Shown here piece after piece: positions 57,090 through 64,000 of a stretch of 64,000 nt of DNA. This DNA comes from an uncultured Verrucomicrobiae bacterium (lineage in GTDB: Bacteria; Verrucomicrobiota; Verrucomicrobiia; Chthoniobacterales; Terrimicrobiaceae): positions 64,001 through 128,000 of the forward strand of contig CAVPOC010000005.1 in assembly GCA_963706955.1 (NCBI GenBank), written 5' to 3'. Each line of letters starts with the position of its first letter. The stretch's first letter is position 1. Under the pieces are notes generated by a model. It was not told the DNA's origin, searched no databases, and was given only the letters and a program-made list of their open reading frames with translations. A program made the translations under genes and the position numbers.

Positions 57090-59132
57090 GTGATCCCAGG
57101 AGCCCACTCACCTGGGGCGAGAATTTTTCTTGCCTCCTTTCTTGTACTTTTCCTTGAGATCGCGCTGATTCGCTGGATGCCAGCTTACATCCGGTTGCTC
57201 GCTTACTTTTCGAATTTTATCCTCCTGGCCAGCTTTCTCGGAATCGGGGTCGGCTGCCTGCTGGCGTCGTCACGAAAACAGCTCTTCACACTGTTTCCAC
57301 TAATCCAAGCGCTCGTCATCGCGATGGTTTACTTTTTCCGGCTCGAAGTAGCTGTCGCCCCGACCGGGAGCCTCTACTTCTCGAGCGGAACTGCCGAGCA
57401 GGTCGTGGCCGTGGAAAGCACATTGCTGCTGCCGGTGATATTTGTGGTCGTGGCGGCCCTGTTTACCACTCTCGCCCAGCGCATGGGAAAGGAGATGGGC
57501 ACACTTCCGCCGCTCCGCGGATACACGCTAAATCTGCTCGGCAGCCTTACAGGTGTTGGACTCTTTGCGCTCATTTCCTGGTTGCAACTCTCGCCAACCT
57601 GGTGGTTCGCCATTGGCTTCGCCGCGGCAATTCCACTCCTGCTGACCTCCGAGCCGGGCACGGGCCACTCTGCGCCTAAGGGCGTCGCACTCACGACGAA
57701 CATCATTCTCCTGCTCGCCGCGCTGTTTTGTGTTCATCTCCTCGCACGAGGCGCACGCTGGTCACCATACTACAAAATTACCTTTGGACGAGCAGATGGG
57801 GACGCGGTGATAGAGGTGAACAACATTTTTCACCAATCAATGGCCCCGGTAGGCCAGAAAGAATACTTCTACCAATGGCCCTACATGGCCTTTGGGGACA
57901 CGTTTCAAAACGTTCTCGTCCTCGGCGCAGGCTCGGGAACGGATGTTGCCGCGGCCTTGAAACATGGCGCCATTCATGTTGATGCCGTCGAGATTGATCC
58001 CGTAATTGTCCAGCTCGGGCGTGAATATCATCCTGATAGGCCCTATTCCGATCCTCGCGTTAACGTCATCATCGACGACGCACGACATTTTCTCAGGACA
58101 ACAACGAAGAAGTATGATCTGGTAGTTTTTGCCTTGATCGATTCGCTGACGCTGCAATCAAGCTTCTCCGGCGTCCGGCTGGAGAGTTATATGTTTACGG
58201 AGGAAGCCTTCCAAGCTGTCAAGAATCGCCTCGCCGCAGACGGGTTGCTGGTCGTCTACAACTACTTCCGCGAACCATGGCTCGTCGATCGGCTGGCAAA
58301 CATCTCGGCTGCGGCCTTTGGGCAGGAACCACGTGTGCACGTCCATGAAGCGCGTGCCTATCTTGGGGTCTTAATGGCTGGGCCGAGACTATCCAAGTTG
58401 ACAAAGGATCCATCGATCCCGGTGCGCGTTACTGCGTATGGGCAGTCGCACGCACCAAGTCCGGCACGTATCCATAGACGCGATGCGACCATTGAACCGG
58501 CAAGTGACGATTGGCCGTTTCTTTACCTTCGTGACCGCCACATCCCCCAGCACTATCTTTCCGCATTGGGTCTCATCCTGGCAGTATCTACGGTTGCCGT
58601 TTTCCTCGTTCTTCGGGGACATCCCGGGAGATGGGCATGGGACTTCTTCCTTCTCGGAGCTGGATTCATGCTCCTCGAGACCCGATCGATCACTCAGTTT
58701 GCGCTGTTGTGGGGATCAACGTGGGTAGTGGCATCGCTCGCCATTGCCTCTGTCCTGGCGATGGCGCTCGTGGCCAACTTCATTGTCTCCAAAGTTGAGA
58801 TCGTCAGATTATGGTTGGTCGGAGGTATTCTTTTCACCCTCCTGGCGGTGAACTTCTTGATTCCTGTCGGCTCAATCAGCTTTGAGTCCCGTATCGTCGA
58901 ATCGCTTTTCTACGCCGGCCTAATGTTTAGCCCGATCTTGTGTGCGGGACTGTTGTTTGGTTCTTCCGTTAAGCGATCGACGGCGCTCGCTCGGGACTAT
59001 GGCACCAATCTTCTCGGCGCGATGTTCGGCGGAGTCAGTGAATACCTCGCCTTAGTCACCGGCTTCGGCACACTACTGTTCGCCATCGCACTTTGCTACG
59101 TCGGCGCCATTGTTGCCATGAAACGACACTAA
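57090..59132 (+). CDS. Multi-pass membrane protein with spermidine-synthase-like class I SAM-binding domain
   Basis: N- and C-terminal TM bundles, VLVLGAGSGTD, AVEIDP, DDARHFL, SDDWPFLY. Confidence 0.85.
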   Translation: MIPGAHSPGARIFLASFLVLFLEIALIRWMPAYIRLLAYFSNFILLASFLGIGVGCLLASSRKQLFTLFPLIQALVIAMVYFFRLEVAVAPTGSLYFSSGTAEQVVAVESTLLLPVIFVVVAALFTTLAQRMGKEMGTLPPLRGYTLNLLGSLTGVGLFALISWLQLSPTWWFAIGFAAAIPLLLTSEPGTGHSAPKGVALTTNIILLLAALFCVHLLARGARWSPYYKITFGRADGDAVIEVNNIFHQSMAPVGQKEYFYQWPYMAFGDTFQNVLVLGAGSGTDVAAALKHGAIHVDAVEIDPVIVQLGREYHPDRPYSDPRVNVIIDDARHFLRTTTKKYDLVVFALIDSLTLQSSFSGVRLESYMFTEEAFQAVKNRLAADGLLVVYNYFREPWLVDRLANISAAAFGQEPRVHVHEARAYLGVLMAGPRLSKLTKDPSIPVRVTAYGQSHAPSPARIHRRDATIEPASDDWPFLYLRDRHIPQHYLSALGLILAVSTVAVFLVLRGHPGRWAWDFFLLGAGFMLLETRSITQFALLWGSTWVVASLAIASVLAMALVANFIVSKVEIVRLWLVGGILFTLLAVNFLIPVGSISFESRIVESLFYAGLMFSPILCAGLLFGSSVKRSTALARDYGTNLLGAMFGGVSEYLALVTGFGTLLFAIALCYVGAIVAMKRH

Positions 59133-59210
59133 GAGCTCGGCTGCCAGTTTCGACAAGGGGAGAGAATCCAGGCGAGCTCGTTCGCCGGATCGAATCTCCG
59201 CTGGACTAGT

Positions 59211-59339
59211 TTATCTCCAAGTGTAATCCCGAAAGAGTCGTCTGGCCGTTGCCCCTTTTGGGTCCTTGCTTGGCTTCAGGTCCTTGACTTGAATTGTGCT
59301 CTTTTCTTTCTTCGGCTGTTTGTTTGATTTGGCTTTCAT
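59211..59339 (-). CDS. Leader/core precursor peptide F, 42 aa: MKAKSNKQPKKEKSTIQVKDLKPSKDPKGA-TARRLFRDYTWR
   Basis: Manually translated; paralogous leader, ATG start, TAA stop. Confidence 0.85.
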   Translation of the reverse strand: MKAKSNKQPKKEKSTIQVKDLKPSKDPKGATARRLFRDYTWR

Positions 59340-59362
59340 TCTGGCGGTTTGATGGTGGCTTG

Positions 59363-59469
59363 AGGCCGTTAATAAAATCCTGCTAACGAGAGGGACCGTG
59401 TGCTGAACTCCCGGTCGGAATAATTCGCCGATGTTCAGCTTAGCTCATCAGGTCCCGCAGGAACGGCTT
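59363..59469. other. Nested inverted repeats (long multi-helix hairpin) between peptides E and F
   Basis: GCCGT/ACGGC, TCCTGC/GCAGGA, GGGACC/GGTCCC, GCTGAAC/GTTCAGC in nested order. Confidence 0.55.
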
Positions 59470-59502
59470 AATGGGCCGACTTATCGAACTTAGGCAATAA
59501 CG

Positions 59503-59661
59503 TTATGCGAAACCACCGCCGGCTCCAAGTCGGCGAAGAGGTCTACCAGGCATCTCCCGACCCCGTATTCCTTGCCCCTTCGAGTCCTTAGTTGGCTCCA
59601 GGTCCTTGAGTTGAACAGTGGGGTTAACCTTCTTGGGTTGTTTCGATGACATTTCTTTCAT
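59503..59661 (-). CDS. Precursor peptide E, 52 aa: MKEMSSKQPKKVNPTVQLKDLEPTKDSKGQ-GIRGREMPGRPLRRLGAGGGFA
   Basis: Manually translated; paralogous leader. Confidence 0.85.
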   Translation of the reverse strand: MKEMSSKQPKKVNPTVQLKDLEPTKDSKGQGIRGREMPGRPLRRLGAGGGFA

Positions 59662-59705
59662 GTCGCTGGTGCGTTTGCGGCTTCTAAGACATCACTGCGC
59701 ATGCC

Positions 59706-59858
59706 CTAGAATGCCAAAGGGCGAAGGGGTCCGGGACGACGCATGGGTAACTCCCGACCAGGTCGGAGTTGCCCCTTTGAATCCTTGGTAGGTTGAAGGT
59801 CTTTGAGTTCGACACCGGGTTTGTCTTTTTTGGACTGTTTCGTTGGTTTCTCTTTCAT
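59706..59858 (-). CDS. Precursor peptide D, 50 aa: MKEKPTKQSKKDKPGVELKDLQPTKDSKGQ-LRPGRELPMRRPGPLRPLAF
   Basis: Manually translated; paralogous leader. Confidence 0.85.
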   Translation of the reverse strand: MKEKPTKQSKKDKPGVELKDLQPTKDSKGQLRPGRELPMRRPGPLRPLAF

Positions 59859-59983
59859 GCTTGTGGTTCGTTCTGTTGTTGTTCTTGCGACTTAGCGCCA
59901 AAACACCGTTTGGCGCCTGCTTTCGCTTGTTCTTACAAAAGTTTGCTGAGTCGGACTTGATTCCTGGGTGATGTCTTCGCCTG
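59855..59983 (-). pseudogene. Decayed copy of the partner peptide gene (QAKTSPRNQVRLSKLL*EQAKAGAKRCFGAKSQEQQQNEPQA*)
   Basis: Aligns to 61076-61243; internal TAA at 59933-59935; final TGA overlaps the ATG of peptide D. Confidence 0.7.
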
Positions 59984-60100
59984 GAAGAGTGCACTAACAA
60001 CCGCGACGTCCCGGTCGAGGATCCCCTTGCGAGCTCGGCGTCCGTCAGCAAATCGCGAGCGAGACAGAGGCGGCAACGTTCAATAAGCGGGATCTCGACC

Positions 60101-60250
60101 TTACAACCGCGAAAGACCTCCGGGAATTCGAAGAATATCACGAGAAGCCATCAGTCGCTTTTGCCCTTGGGCATCTTTGATCGGCTTGAGGTCCTTAATT
60201 TGGACGCCGGGTTTTTCTTTTTTGGACTGGTTCGTCGATTTTTCTTTCAT
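60101..60250 (-). CDS. Precursor peptide C, 49 aa: MKEKSTNQSKKEKPGVQIKDLKPIKDAQGQ-KRLMASRDILRIPGGLSRL
   Basis: Manually translated; paralogous leader. Confidence 0.87.
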   Translation of the reverse strand: MKEKSTNQSKKEKPGVQIKDLKPIKDAQGQKRLMASRDILRIPGGLSRL

Positions 60251-60348
60251 GGTTGTGGTTTGTTCTACTGTTGTTCTCGCGATTTCAAACGACGCGAAGT
60301 TGTGTTGCCGAGCTTAGTGTCCCCCTTGGGTGTAGAATCGTGGAATCG
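60247..60348 (-). pseudogene. Decayed copy of the partner peptide gene (RFHDSTPKGDTKLG...KSREQQ*NKPQP*)
   Basis: Matches the RLDDLIPKKDAKAG register; TAG at 60265-60267; final TGA overlaps the ATG of peptide C. Confidence 0.55.
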
Positions 60349-60502
60349 ATTTGACTTGCCGATGACCCTTCTCGTCCCGGCGGCCGATCCTCGGTTCGCC
60401 GAGGCGTGTTAACTAATAACGGCTACCGTTTAAAAAAATGGCCCCCAGACTCGCCCACTTCGTAGCGACATTGAACGACTGACCGCTGAGTCGCGATCGA
60501 CC

Positions 60503-60676
60503 TCAACGGCGCGGAAAGCGTTCTCCAGGAAGTTGAATTATATCTGGAGAAAGCATTCTCATATCTTGAGAAGGCATCAGTCGCTTCTGTCCTTGGGCAT
60601 CTTTGGTCGGCTTGAGGTCCTTGATTTGAACAGCGGGTTTGTCTTTCTTGGACTGCTTGGATGATTTCTCTTTCAT
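60503..60676 (-). CDS. Precursor peptide B, 57 aa: MKEKSSKQSKKDKPAVQIKDLKPTKDAQGQ-KRLMPSQDMRMLSPDIIQLPGERFPRR
   Basis: Manually translated; leader identical in protein to peptide A. Confidence 0.88.
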   Translation of the reverse strand: MKEKSSKQSKKDKPAVQIKDLKPTKDAQGQKRLMPSQDMRMLSPDIIQLPGERFPRR

Positions 60677-60789
60677 GCGTTTGGTTGGTTCTTTTTTGAC
60701 TTCTGCGGCTTGGCTTCCAAAGTCGGTCCGGCGTGCGGCTTCACCTCGCTCTCGGGAGGAGATTCGTTGAGCCGAATGTGTTTGGCCAA
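60673..60789 (-). pseudogene. Diverged copy of the partner peptide gene (LAKHIRLNESPPESEVKPHAGPTLEAKPQKSKKNQPNA*)
   Basis: Retains IRL and AKPQ..KK..P but has lost DDLIPK and FG; only a TTG start is available; TGA overlaps the ATG of peptide B. Confidence 0.6.
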
Positions 60790-60932
60790 TGAGCTTTTCT
60801 CTTCACGAAAGGCGTATAGGCACTAAGCTGTGGTCGTTAACGTAGCTGCGACTATGGATACGCGTTTGCAACTCGTCCACGCCGCCTCAACAGCAACGAA
60901 TAGCCTTTAGGCGCGGTTCGACCTTTAACCCC

Positions 60933-61073
60933 TCAGAAGCCTCCAGGTCTCCGAAAAATCTCTTCAGAGGCCATCATTCGCCTCTGCCCCTGAGCATCCT
61001 TGGTTGGCTTGAGGTCTTTGATTTGGACAGCTGGTTTATCTTTCTTGGACTGCTTGGATGATTTCTCTTTCAT
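60933..61073 (-). CDS. Precursor peptide A, 46 aa: MKEKSSKQSKKDKPAVQIKDLKPTKDAQGQ-RRMMASEEIFRRPGGF
   Basis: Manually translated; ATG 2 nt after the partner gene stop. Confidence 0.88.
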   Translation of the reverse strand: MKEKSSKQSKKDKPAVQIKDLKPTKDAQGQRRMMASEEIFRRPGGF

Positions 61074-61075
61074 GC

Positions 61076-61243
61076 TTACGGTTCACTCTTTTTTGGGTTT
61101 TGCGGCTTGGCACCAAACACCATTCGGCGGCCCGCTTTGGCGTCCTTCTTGGGTATGAGATCGTCGAGCCGAATCTGATTCATCGGCGACGTTTTCTCGG
61201 CGCGGGCAGGGGTCGAGCGATGCTTGGGCGGTTGATCACTCAC
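61076..61243 (-). CDS. Partner peptide, 55 aa: MSDQPPKHRSTPARAEKTSPMNQIRLDDLIPKKDAKAG-RRMVFGAKPQNPKKSEP
   Basis: GTG start just downstream of the sigma-54 promoter; contains the related motif DL-x-P-x-KD-x-K-AG. Confidence 0.75.
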   Translation of the reverse strand: MSDQPPKHRSTPARAEKTSPMNQIRLDDLIPKKDAKAGRRMVFGAKPQNPKKSEP

Positions 61244-61265
61244 GTTTAAGCCTCGGACGTCTAAG

Positions 61266-61281
61266 ATCAAATTTCATGCCA
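61266..61281 (-). promoter_or_regulatory. Sigma-54 (-24/-12) promoter TGGCAT-GAAAT-TTGAT driving the peptide array
   Basis: Matches TGGCAC-N5-TTGC(A/T) with exact GG-N10-G spacing (GA at -12); lies between the activator gene and the first peptide ORF. Confidence 0.7.
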
Positions 61282-61414
61282 CCTCGCGCGCGGACCCAGC
61301 AAAATAGGGAAAAGGCTAATTCCAAGGCGCTTAATCGAAGCACGCCTGCAAAGGACAAACGATTCTACTGGTAACGAATCAGCGCAGCCCTGCTTCGAAA
61401 TAGCTCCGGTCGCT

Positions 61415-62399
61415 TTAGTTTGGAGCCAGGCCGCGCAGATGCCGCGCAAGTTTCCCTCTCGAAATCCGGAGGATCCGGGCAGTTTCGCGTTGGTTGCAAT
61501 CCGACATCTCGTAGACGCGACGGACGTGCTCACGGATAATGGCGTCAAGAGCAAACTGGTTTGCAGCTTCCTCGTGCGCGGCAGTTCCCTTGGCACCATT
61601 TAGTGGTCGCTCCACTGCGAGATCGCGCTCAAACGAGACGTGCTTAGGGTGAACCACGTTGCCATCACAAAAGAGCGCAACGCTACGCATGGTATGGTAG
61701 AGTTCGCGTAGGTTTCCCGGCCAGGCATGATTCAGCAGCATCTCCATGGCCGCAGGATGAATGGATGTGATGCGATTTCCCGATCTCAGCCGCTGCGGCC
61801 TCAAGTTCCATGGCGATCAAAGAGGGCAAATCTTCCTGGCGCTCGCACAGCGAAGGGATGAACAGCACGAGGCCATCAAGGCGATGATAGAGATCCTCGC
61901 GAAATTTTCCCGCGGCAATACGCTCCCGCAGCGAGCAATTCGTTGCGGAGATGATGCGGACATTCGAACGGTGCAGGCGCTCACCTCCGACGCGCTCGAA
62001 CTCGCCATACTCCACCGCGCGCAGGATCTTCGCTTGGGCAAGTGGGCTCATGTCCGCAATTTCATCGAGGAAAAGCGTGCCGGTGTGAGCCGTCTCAAAC
62101 TTTCCTCGATGCACCTGCATTGCTCCGGTGAACGCGCCGCGTTCGTGGCCGAAAAGCTCGCTTTCGAGCAGCGTGTCACTCATTGAGGATGCGTTGAAGG
62201 AAACAAATGGTCCGTGCGCTCGCGCCGAAGAATTGTGAATAGCATGCGCCAGCAGGGTCTTGCCCGTTCCGGTCCGGCCGAGAATGAGCACCGGAGCGTC
62301 GCTTTTGGCAGCAAAGGATGCCAGTTGGAGACACCGTCGCATGACGGGATTACGCGAAGTGAGTTCCTCCAAACGCAGATCGGTAATGGTCCGCATCAT
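61415..62399 (-). pseudogene. Sigma-54 enhancer-binding protein (AAA+ and HTH, no N-terminal sensor), frameshifted as assembled near 61775
   Basis: GRTGTGKT, ESELFGHERGAFTGA, LFLDEI, FREDLYHRL in one frame; HAWPGNLREL and HTH NQRETARILRISRGKL in the next. Removing one base from GGG AAA T CGC ATC joins them. Confidence 0.85.
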
Positions 62400-62403
62400 G
62401 AGG

Positions 62404-63591
62404 TCACGGTTGAAGATTCTCCCGCAGCTGGCGGATCGGCTCAAAGGCATGCTCGATCAAAGTGCGACTGCCGACGGTGACACGCGCCTCACCCTGCATG
62501 CCAACTCGCAAAGGGCGCTCTTCGCTTTTCACGCGAATGAAGGGCCGATCGAGCGACGCCGCGGCGGTGAACTGTCGGCTGCGCTCGGAGGCAACAGCCG
62601 CGGCGCTGATCCATTTTAGCTCGCCTGTCACCGTGCCGTAACGCTGATACGGAAATGCATCGAAGAACAATCTGACATGCTGCCCGATGGTCAGCCGCGC
62701 GAGGCCAGATTCACGAACGACCAAGCGGGCGTATGGGATGGCATCGATCGGGGCAAGTTGGCAAAGTTCCGCCCCCGCTGGCACGACGCTGCCCGCGTTT
62801 CGCTGGGCAAGCGAGATGACCACCGCATCATAGGGTGCGCGGATCGACAGGAGGTCGTTGCGCGTGCCAAGGAGATCGCGTTGCAGAGCATCGATCTGCA
62901 ACTTGAGTTTCTGCACATCCGCGATCTCCTCAGTTCGACGACGCGCCCGCTCGGTATCGAGCTTGCTGCGTTCGAGTTTCAGTGCCTCCAAGGATCTTCC
63001 GGCCACATGGAAATCTTTCTCGGATTCAGCGAGGTCCAACTGCACGCGTGTCAATTCGAGGTGCGAGACGCCGCCCATCCGCGCGAGTCTGTCGAGCCGC
63101 TCCACCAAGTCGCGACTCGTTGCGGTATGTGTCCCGCGAAACTCCAGCTCGCGTTCGAACTGAGCGATCTCCTCGCTTTTGATTCTTCGCTGGGCGATAT
63201 GGGCCGCCTCCATTTTGACGATCGTGTCCTCTTGGGTTCGGAGGTCCTGTGTCAACGTCTGAAGCTGCGTATGTTTCGCGCGAACCTCATCGGAGCGGAG
63301 GACGAAGAGTTCCGCGCCGGCGGCGACCTCTTGCGCCTCGACAACGCGAACGTCGCTGACGACACCGTGATAGGGCGCTTGGATCGGATCGGCACCATGT
63401 CTTGGCGCGAGCACAAATTGACAGCGCACCGTCTCCGGAACCTGAACGACAAGGGCCGCGATGAGCGCAACAACGAAGATTAGTGCCAATAGCCACGCCG
63501 TGCCCGAGACGATCAAAGGCGGTGGCTCGACCGGAAGCATTTCAGCCTGCTCATCTGACTCGCGTTTGCTCTGCGGGAGGGTCGAATTCAT
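62404..63591 (-). CDS. HlyD family membrane-fusion (periplasmic adaptor) protein
   Basis: TM helix, IQAPYHGVV, coiled coil, IRAPYDAVV, FDAFPYQRYGTVTG, LRVGMQGEA, RTLIEHAFEP. Confidence 0.92.
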   Translation of the reverse strand: MNSTLPQSKRESDEQAEMLPVEPPPLIVSGTAWLLALIFVVALIAALVVQVPETVRCQFVLAPRHGADPIQAPYHGVVSDVRVVEAQEVAAGAELFVLRSDEVRAKHTQLQTLTQDLRTQEDTIVKMEAAHIAQRRIKSEEIAQFERELEFRGTHTATSRDLVERLDRLARMGGVSHLELTRVQLDLAESEKDFHVAGRSLEALKLERSKLDTERARRRTEEIADVQKLKLQIDALQRDLLGTRNDLLSIRAPYDAVVISLAQRNAGSVVPAGAELCQLAPIDAIPYARLVVRESGLARLTIGQHVRLFFDAFPYQRYGTVTGELKWISAAAVASERSRQFTAAASLDRPFIRVKSEERPLRVGMQGEARVTVGSRTLIEHAFEPIRQLRENLQP

Positions 63592-63600
63592 GAGCAAAAT

Positions 63601-64000
63601 TCAGATACCCAACTGTTGGCTGGAGAGATGGAAATAGAGACCGCGCCTTGCCATGAGCCCATCGTGTGTGCCGGTCTCGACAATTTCGCCTTTCTCCAAG
63701 ACGACGATCATATCGGCCTCGCGAATGGTGCTCAGGCGATGGGCGATGACAATGCAGGTCCGCCCAACCATCATGCGACTGAGATTGTCCTGGATCGCGC
63801 GTTCGGATTCGGTATCAAGCGCGCTGGTCGCCTCGTCGAAAATGAGAATTGGTGGGTCTGTATAGAGTGCGCGCGCGATGGCGACGCGTTGTTTCTGTCC
63901 GCCGGATAGGGCGATGCCAGTCTCACCGATGCTCGTCTCGTAGCCCATGGGCATCCGCATGATGAAGTCGTGAGCATTGGCGACCTGGGCACACCAAAGG
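63601..64000 (-). CDS. C-terminus of an ABC exporter ATPase (HlyB/peptidase-containing transporter-like); partial
   Basis: ANAHDFI...[39 protein letters not shown]; frame open to the window edge; directly upstream of HlyD. A C39 domain cannot be seen in this window. Confidence 0.88.

Follow-up and report, generated by a model that had tools for sequence, protein, structure and literature searches.

Near one end of a 64,000-nucleotide (nt) window, the whole stretch of DNA analyzed here, from an uncultured Verrucomicrobiae bacterium of the Terrimicrobiaceae (assembly GCA_963706955.1, contig CAVPOC010000005.1, forward-strand positions 64,001-128,000; part of the genome termed G000 below), six small minus-strand open reading frames (ORFs), A to F, follow one another in a row. 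The locus raises the question of whether these repeats are genes and, if so, what becomes of their products. A seventh peptide, Z, was identified at the head of the row, giving the order Z and then A-F, and the seven genes probably form an operon-like array of leader-core precursors exported by an adjacent peptidase-containing ABC transporter (PCAT) that combines cyclic nucleotide (cNMP)-binding, C39 peptidase, and ABC parts. The leader of A-F is a Lys-rich N-terminal stretch of 30 residues with the invariant motif D-L-x-P-x-K-D-x-x-G, followed by short cores of 12-27 amino acids (aa) that are rich in Arg, Pro, and Gly and lack Cys.

An earlier note on this DNA had claimed that the leaders of A and B are under purifying selection, with nine synonymous and no non-synonymous changes between them, and both the coordinates and the counts were reproduced exactly. 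The two leaders encode the same 30 residues, MKEKSSKQSKKDKPAVQIKDLKPTKDAQGQ, and in a codon-by-codon comparison the only differences were third-base changes in codons 12, 14, 16, 19, 23, 25, 27, 28, and 29, eight of them transitions and one a transversion. By the method of Nei-Gojobori, the leaders contain 17.3 synonymous and 72.7 non-synonymous sites, so that the nine synonymous and zero non-synonymous differences correspond to a proportion of synonymous differences (pS) of 0.52. The chance of all nine changes being silent was 3.6e-7 under uniform mutation and approximately 5e-6 in 200,000 simulations that held the eight transitions and one transversion. Past the leader, from codon 31 onward, A and B differ in nearly all codons, and their cores were confirmed as unlike in sequence and length, with 16 compared to 27 aa in the window, the former figure possibly being an indel artifact. 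The seven extra codons of B correspond to an internal 21-nt tandem copy (16 of 21 bases alike) that yields MPSQD and MLSPD, and the division of the cores into the subfamilies A-C, D-E, and F was as the note had described. Codons 1-11 of A (61041-61073) and B (60644-60676) are identical in 33 of 33 bases, while 9 of the 19 following third positions differ (Fisher p=0.011), a pattern that conversion over a short tract, selection acting on the initiation region, or chance could have produced; in the 40 nt upstream of the two ATG codons, 29 of 40 positions match.

The constraint on the leader extends beyond this pair. A genome search added ten leaders from four more genomes of the genus, and for the sixteen leaders, six of them from the window, the ratio of non-synonymous to synonymous rates (omega) estimated by maximum likelihood (ML) under the GY94 codon model in IQ-TREE, with omega=1 as the null, was approximately 0.11 (lnL -850.4 compared to -914.4 at omega=1). 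Taken by type, leader omega was 0.026 (p=1.6e-13 against omega=1, as for all values here) in the A type comprising A, B, C, and one copy from genome G007, 0.061 (p=6.9e-11) in the E type, 0.089 (p=2e-15) in D and E together, and 0.136 (p=1e-7) in the F type, all of these being rough values because synonymous sites are near saturation (pooled pS 0.62-0.67). The corresponding cores, read with the same reservation, gave 0.46 (p=0.044), 0.57 (p=0.096), 0.44 (p=0.002), and 0.071 (p=1e-7), and pooled pairwise pN/pS was 0.20 for leaders and 0.45 for cores. In the six window leaders, 12 first, 8 second, and 26 third codon positions of 30 vary, and in the full set of sixteen these counts are 22, 14, and 28. 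Among all six frames, pN/pS was at its minimum in the sense frame (0.25), in which none of the 16 leaders has a stop, and this supports the claim that the repeats are selected as protein.

The earlier note had further described the core as free, with ratios expected near or above 1 beside leader ratios far below it. The leader part of this expectation stood, at 0.11 overall and 0.026 in the A type. For the cores it stood in part: those of A-E are relaxed (omega approximately 0.44-0.57), yet all core values (0.071-0.57) lie below 1 and the F core is held more tightly than its own leader, with five synonymous and no non-synonymous changes between G000_F and G017_3. The larger set of sixteen copies did not bring leader omega near 1, and no RNA element was found that might account for the conservation instead. 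Orthologues of every core subfamily occur in further genomes and in metagenomes, including recorded A-type and C-type cores (P0110 and P0121) and a B-type core with its insertion (…DMRMLS.D…PGGGLPRR) that recurs in 11 of 48 metagenomic cluster representatives, among those listed, of the type whose leader ends in GQ. Given these B-type, A-type, and C-type orthologues, the A/B duplication is old and each core type has been maintained; the cores are diversified between paralogues and conserved inside each type. This is the textbook pattern expected for any leader-core precursor family, and it therefore mainly certifies the unannotated 42-57-aa ORFs as real genes.

Peptide Z differs from the other members in its leader, a variant (IRLDDLIPKKDAKAG) that ends in the dipeptide AG, and in its core (RRMVFGAKPQ...), which is kept across the genus and recognizable in other families of the order. 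Orthologues were identified in all four other genomes of the genus (G001, G004, G007, and G017; G and L numbers denote genomes and genome contig loci, respectively) and in G029, as well as at loci L037, L044, and L045. Among those five genomes, the start codon is GTG in three and ATG in G004 and G029, and Z is the sole invariant member of the arrays. An alignment of four upstream units extended the repeat unit approximately 110 nt upstream of each ATG, with nucleotide identity between units of 77-90% in the leader, 51-62% in the upstream Z-like region, and 31-47% in the remaining flanks. The Z copies that precede B, C, and D no longer hold the motif or are interrupted by stops. Serial tandem duplication, as the note had inferred, was thus corroborated and given a unit: the Z-like relics indicate that the array grew by duplication of Z together with a peptide, after which the redundant Z copies decayed and the peptide leaders were retained. 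The decayed copies serve as an internal neutral control for the conservation of the leader. The positions of these and the neighboring features are given in Table 1.

Table 1. Positions of the peptide array and its adjoining features in the 64,000-nt window.
Feature	Position	Strand	Length	Remarks
Peptide Z	61076..61243	-	55 aa	GTG start at 61243; leader ...QIRLDDLIPKKDAKAG, core RRMVFGAKPQNPKKSEP; stop 2 nt before the ATG of A
Peptide A	60933..61073	-	46 aa in window	Leader codons 1-30 (61073-60984); core RRMMASEEIFRRPGGF; C-terminus uncertain (1-nt indel at 60939)
Peptide B	60503..60676	-	57 aa	Leader 60676-60587; 27-aa core with 21-nt internal tandem duplication
Peptide C	60101..60250	-	49 aa	A-type core
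Peptide D	59706..59858	-	50 aa	D-type core (LRPGRELP...)
Peptide E	59503..59661	-	52 aa	E-type core (GIRGREMP...)
Peptide F	59211..59339	-	42 aa	Leader ends in GA; core TARRLFRDYTWR, kept across 5 genomes
Decayed Z copy in repeat unit B	60673..60789	-		Leader motif lost; similar relics before C and D
Sigma-54-like -24/-12 element	61266..61281	-		TGGCAT-N5-TTGAT upstream of Z, between the enhancer-binding protein gene and Z; TGGCATGAAATTTGAT (61281-61266)
Sigma-54 enhancer-binding protein (EBP)	61415..62450	-		Sigma54_activat match; AAA+, lid, and helix-turn-helix domains; no N-terminal sensor domain; split in two ORFs near 61775
HlyD-family membrane-fusion adaptor	62404..63597	-	397 aa	HlyD_3, TIGR01843
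Exporter, 3' end	63601..64000	-	1039 aa (whole protein)	Last 400 bases in window; gene continues past it to G000:C5:130720

Several contigs from other sources cover or resemble the array. At 60939-60940, one additional base is present in near-identical short-read contigs of X1 and in an RNA-library contig of X18; with this base placed after 60939, A would read past ...PGGF to L-L-R-G-stop and acquire a 19-aa core, and P0103 is a third recorded version of the A C-terminus. The 16-aa core of A may therefore reflect a 1-nt assembly indel. Parts of 59968-61092, with A, B, and C among them, are matched by contigs from metatranscriptomic libraries of two different studies at 0-6 other letters; because these might stem from DNA carry-over, they hint only weakly at transcription of A-C, and the lack of such cover for D, E, and F is not evidence of silence. 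An RNA-library contig of X18 links 60658, in the leader region of B, to 61094, at the end of Z, by way of 37 other letters; its probable source is a related strain whose units differ in number or order. In relatives whose leaders end in GG, many cores at L041:1167-1328, L048:6010-6479, and L049:5992-7203 are short tandem repeats (for example GRTVA four times, GAGNLGASNQ, and SRQG), which suggests that such repeat-rich cores lengthen through internal duplications like the one in peptide B. P0120, a metagenomic ORF of 100 aa, holds a Z-type and the following GG-type peptide in a single frame, owing either to a fusion that exists in nature or to read-through at gene calling.

The leader also defines a wider family through the motif DLxPxKDxxGG. 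Outside the genus, its consensus is …V(K/R)DLKPxKDAKGG and the cores are short, hydrophilic, and often of low complexity. A profile of six peptides (A1) matched 4 of 18 other genomes of the genus, and a profile of 21 peptides (A2) matched 58 of 401 genomes of the order, G000 included and one (G193) flagged as unpublished. With G000 excluded, the A2 matches were distributed over the families f14 (49 of 71 genomes), f1 (4 of 71), f6 (3 of 30), and f8 (1 of 71). Of 401 genomes sampled from the phylum, three matched, G000 among them, all in the same order, and no A2 match was found in the approximately 391 genomes of that sample outside the order; the leader family is, in the genomes searched, confined to the window's own order. 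Related contigs were labeled Terrimicrobium, Terrimicrobiaceae, Chthoniobacterales, or Verrucomicrobiota. One protein collection holds 380 members and another at least 486 representatives at 50% identity, nearly all of them unnamed or called "hypothetical protein", and the closest clusters to peptide B in the ESM Atlas were unnamed hypothetical proteins, from Verrucomicrobiota wherever the phylum is known.

Over 237 instances of the motif, the dipeptide closing the leader was GG in 163, GQ in 48, GA in 12, AG in 9, AA in 2, and GK, AQ, and GS in one each. The window's genus holds no GG copy, the dipeptide being AG in Z, GQ in A-E, GA in F, and AQ in a single copy from G001. The family cores are hypervariable, with Cys in only 12 of 237. 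Between GQ-type and GG-type lineages, the C39 domains differ in nine group-specific columns, none of them at the catalytic motifs, which are too few to claim a change of specificity, and a predicted complex of the C39 domain with peptide A scored 0.01 against a mark of 0.32, was made without controls, and counts neither way. The motif strings KDAKGG, KDVKGG, and KDPKGG were absent from the literature searched, where the sole match to KDLKP was unrelated and nothing paired Verrucomicrobia or Chthoniobacter with two or more of the subjects double-glycine, leader peptide, and peptidase-containing ABC transporter. By its sequence, the leader appears to be a double-glycine-type variant, undescribed so far and restricted to the order. 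The cores of P0179, P0181, and P0209 look like fragments of another protein motif, and two of the three are annotated accordingly in their source; we take cores of this kind to resemble an H-X9-DG C-terminal motif, and those of P0171 and P0183 presumably resemble the Asp-box-like S-x-D-x-G-x-T-W.

The genes upstream of the array suggest the route by which the peptides may leave the cell. The exporter has the domain order PF00027 cNMP-binding (E=3e-47, in two stretches), PF03412 C39 (E=1.6e-36, at approximately residues 320-460), PF00664, and PF00005; its C39 motifs are intact (Q..DCG as QIDEMDCG, and NHW..DP) with the Cys, His, and Asp all present, and the genome holds no other strong C39 match. 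The top NCBIfam match of the exporter was TIGR03796, an NHLP-type exporter for peptides made on the ribosome and modified after translation (RiPPs), at 545.7 bits and below the cut-off of 853.3. The HlyD-family gene adjoins it, so that the pairing of a C39-ABC exporter with a membrane-fusion protein, as in class II microcin-type export in diderms, is present. Directly upstream of the exporter gene, and overlapping its start, lies a gene for a 357-aa protein with 96 homologues, for which every supplied name was "hypothetical protein". Its AlphaFold2 model (pLDDT 88.7) matched PrsA, SurA, and Cj1289 in Foldseek (E 1e-5 to 2e-4, probability 1.00, TM 0.2-0.5), the low TM-scores being as would be expected for hinged multidomain proteins, and the model predicts a PrsA/SurA-like fold with a parvulin-like domain. 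A match to TIGR04500, the model for PpiC-related putative peptide maturation proteins, was weak (33.2 bits compared to a cut-off of 180, over one 50-residue stretch).

The gene order is kept in G001, G004, G017, and G029, and the EBP is intact in G004, G017, and G029 (327-336 aa). Among the 25 loci used for counts of genes directly upstream of the peptides, the EBP was present at 19, HlyD at 17, and the ABC gene at 15, some of the loci being short (L035 and L043 end at contig ends and L053 has 2.3 kb upstream only), and the C39-ABC/HlyD/EBP order is common to two families of the order. The sigma-54-like element, in the form TGGCAY-N5-YTGAT, occurs at the same site and spacing in 5 of 5 genomes of the genus against a regular-expression background of 0.018 per 450 nt, and looser forms (TGGCAY-N5-xTGxT) were found at 6 of 15 loci outside the genus. 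A scan of the array for terminators and sigma-70 promoters returned zero terminators and one promoter-like site, not above shuffled sequences. The ORF lists showed no further conserved ORF among the peptides or next to them, in a reading that was not a systematic search for small membrane proteins. On the other side of the array, a convergent gene at 57090-59132 (+) encodes a 680-aa membrane protein with a spermidine-synthase-like domain; it adjoins the array in G000, G001, G007, and G017, not in G004, and is probably a mere neighbor.

From the sequence features, selection pattern, synteny, and family distribution observed here, we infer cleavage, export, sigma-54 control, and a chaperone role, which would operate as follows. 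The array would be transcribed from the single sigma-54-like promoter before Z under control of the adjacent sensor-less EBP. The cytoplasmic PrsA/SurA-like protein encoded upstream of the exporter would probably handle the precursors, and the leader would act as the recognition, cleavage, and export signal for the neighboring PCAT working with HlyD. Leader removal would take place at or next to the G-Q, G-A, or A-G dipeptide that aligns with the G-G of the family, releasing the core outside the cell. Strong purifying selection on the leader would follow from the need of all seven precursors to fit one exporter, and the cores would have diversified after duplication of Z plus peptide, each type then being conserved among orthologues. 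As a best guess, the mature products are secreted peptides of the class II microcin or pheromone type that carry light modification or none and act in competition or signaling.

This account has parallels in several described systems. Like class II bacteriocins, class II microcins, and pheromones, the array encodes small precursors with a leader that ends in a Gly-containing dipeptide, and as in double-glycine systems generally, the precursors lie beside a C39-ABC exporter with intact Cys and His and a HlyD-type adaptor, in multiple tandem copies with one conserved leader and diverse cores. The cores here differ in being short, hydrophilic, and cationic, with no immunity gene recognized among the neighbors scanned. 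The order of cNMP-binding, C39, ABC transmembrane, and ATPase domains is that of HetC from Nostoc PCC 7120, for which the cited passages give no known substrate and none encoded near hetC (PMC10986499); the exporter here has two putative cNMP-binding stretches and candidate substrates adjoining it. Prochlorosins and families of the NHLP/Nif11 type combine many precursors with one conserved leader and hypervariable cores, a design shared by the many paralogues here together with the NHLP-type exporter match, that match being below its cut-off; the seven peptides matched no NHLP/Nif11-type leader model (NCBIfam, E<=10), and no lanthipeptide synthetase or other modifying enzyme was found among the neighbors scanned. 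The peptides may also be likened to EbfG of Synechococcus elongatus, small secreted proteins with a GG-type secretion motif that are connected with biofilm formation rather than antibiosis in the part of the source cited (PMC4997328).

Several observations weigh against this account. None of the seven peptides matched any Pfam or NCBIfam family, even at E<=10, and the peptides, their cleavage, and their export are known here from sequence alone. Described double-glycine sites are GG, GA, and GS in the passages cited (PMC6363468), whereas A-E place Gln before the presumed cut, where cleavage is not assured. The pattern given there for substrates of ComA and LahT is a short helix with Leu(-12)-X3-Glu(-8)-Leu(-7) and Val(-4) (PMC6363468), and the leader here lacks it: counting back from GQ or GG, position -4 is Ala, Ser, or Pro, -7 is Thr, Ile, or Ser, -8 is Pro, and -12 is Lys, with hydrophobic residues at -10 (Leu), -13, and -15. 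At 3 of the 25 loci (L050, L051, and L054), 6 kb of upstream sequence holds no exporter genes, and neither an immunity gene nor a modifying enzyme was found among the eight neighbors scanned with Pfam and NCBIfam. In the promoter-like element, the -12 part reads TGA and not the canonical TGC, and the strict motif was found upstream at 0 of 21 loci outside the genus. Finally, the EBP is divided into ORFs of 255 and 129 aa by one inserted nt near 61775, as judged against G007 and G017; the base is missing from an X5 DNA contig belonging to a relative, and the split is either an assembly error or a pseudogene. An rpoN (sigma-54) fragment, whose presence in the genome speaks for the promoter reading, lies outside the window at the contig start (G000:C5:65-1050) as two overlapping frame pieces with an internal stop, an apparent frameshift. 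Together, the difference at 60939, the split EBP, and the split rpoN suggest indel errors in the assembly.

A different fate for the peptides, which we regard as unlikely, is that they are RiPP precursors whose leader recruits the PrsA/SurA-like partner together with an enzyme whose gene lies elsewhere; the cores, which are often Pro-rich, would be modified before export. The NHLP-type exporter match, the conserved position of the 357-aa gene directly upstream of the exporter, its 96 homologues, and the predicted parvulin-like fold would fit, as would its resemblance to MirC of the rosaritide (graspetide) cluster, both being SurA-like proteins with no obvious export signal, encoded beside a TIGR03796-like PCAT and precursors; MirC, a characterized TIGR04500 member, is described in the cited part of its source as a chaperone-domain partner beside the PCAT and needed for graspetide maturation (PMC13097080). 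Against modification, the eight neighbors scanned encode no ATP-grasp ligase, radical SAM enzyme, lanthionine or lanthipeptide synthetase, cyclodehydratase, or other modifying family, Cys is rare in the cores, and both the TIGR04500 and the TIGR03796 matches fall below their cut-offs.

Still less probable is that the ORFs encode intracellular small proteins, neither cleaved nor exported, with a functional Lys-rich N-terminal part and a variable tail, the link to the exporter being regulatory or coincidental. The GQ of A-E, the missing helix pattern with Pro at -8, and the three loci without exporter genes would all suit such proteins, but the order of C39-ABC, HlyD, and EBP genes is kept across two families of the order, GG stands at the aligned position in most family members, and a conserved N-terminus joined to a hypervariable C-terminus in tandem copies is the signature of leader-core precursors.

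Two other proposals address the conservation of the leader alone. Gene conversion (concerted evolution) in place of purifying selection on the protein would explain the identical opening codons of A and B, and is nonetheless very improbable: it is largely refuted by the high synonymous divergence of the leaders (pS 0.52 for A and B, 0.62 pooled), which conversion would have erased, while all nine differences are synonymous, a like constraint holds between orthologues of different genomes, and the sequence just upstream of the ATG codons matches only at the 29 of 40 positions given above. An overlapping RNA element or antisense gene is scarcely credible and was refuted in both forms by tests made here, since, despite a better fold than shuffled sequences for the copy C leader (z=-2.8) and 7 synonymous and 0 non-synonymous A/B changes in the antisense frame with coinciding third positions, the other 5 of 6 window leader RNAs fold no better than shuffles (z +0.4 to +2.0), RNAalifold found zero conserved pairs across the 16 leaders, Rfam returned nothing credible on 58800-61700 (the sole match, a fly lncRNA at E=0.36, lies outside the peptides), that antisense frame is interrupted by stops in 8 of the 16 leaders, A and B among them, with pN/pS of 0.40 compared to 0.25 in sense, and leader variation sits mostly at third positions (26 of 30).

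Returning to the array as a set of exported precursors, two more far-reaching readings deserve mention, although taken jointly they are held to be improbable. One is a genus-wide shift of PCAT substrates away from GG with a C39 domain that is nearly unchanged, in which case the peptidase would either accept Gln at P1 or cut between G and Q; with the latter cut, the cores would begin with Gln and could cyclize to pyroglutamate. The other is that the five-part module represents a distinct, regulated secretion system of the Chthoniobacterales, comprising a cytoplasmic PrsA/SurA-like partner, a cNMP-gated PCAT, HlyD, a sensor-less sigma-54 activator, and Z with its variable array, in which Z would serve as a conserved signal and A-F as effectors that vary. 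The change from GG to GQ offers a natural specificity experiment on C39 peptidases, with a bearing on tools for leader removal, and the locus places candidate substrates beside one of the HetC-like cNMP-gated PCATs for which none are known. As the leader departs from the classical double-glycine rules, searches based on those rules are expected to miss the family. The leader family, the shift from GG to GQ, and the conserved first peptide Z are worth following, and the locus brings to light a large unnamed family of presumably exported peptides, with its at least 486 cluster representatives, in a poorly studied order of soil bacteria.

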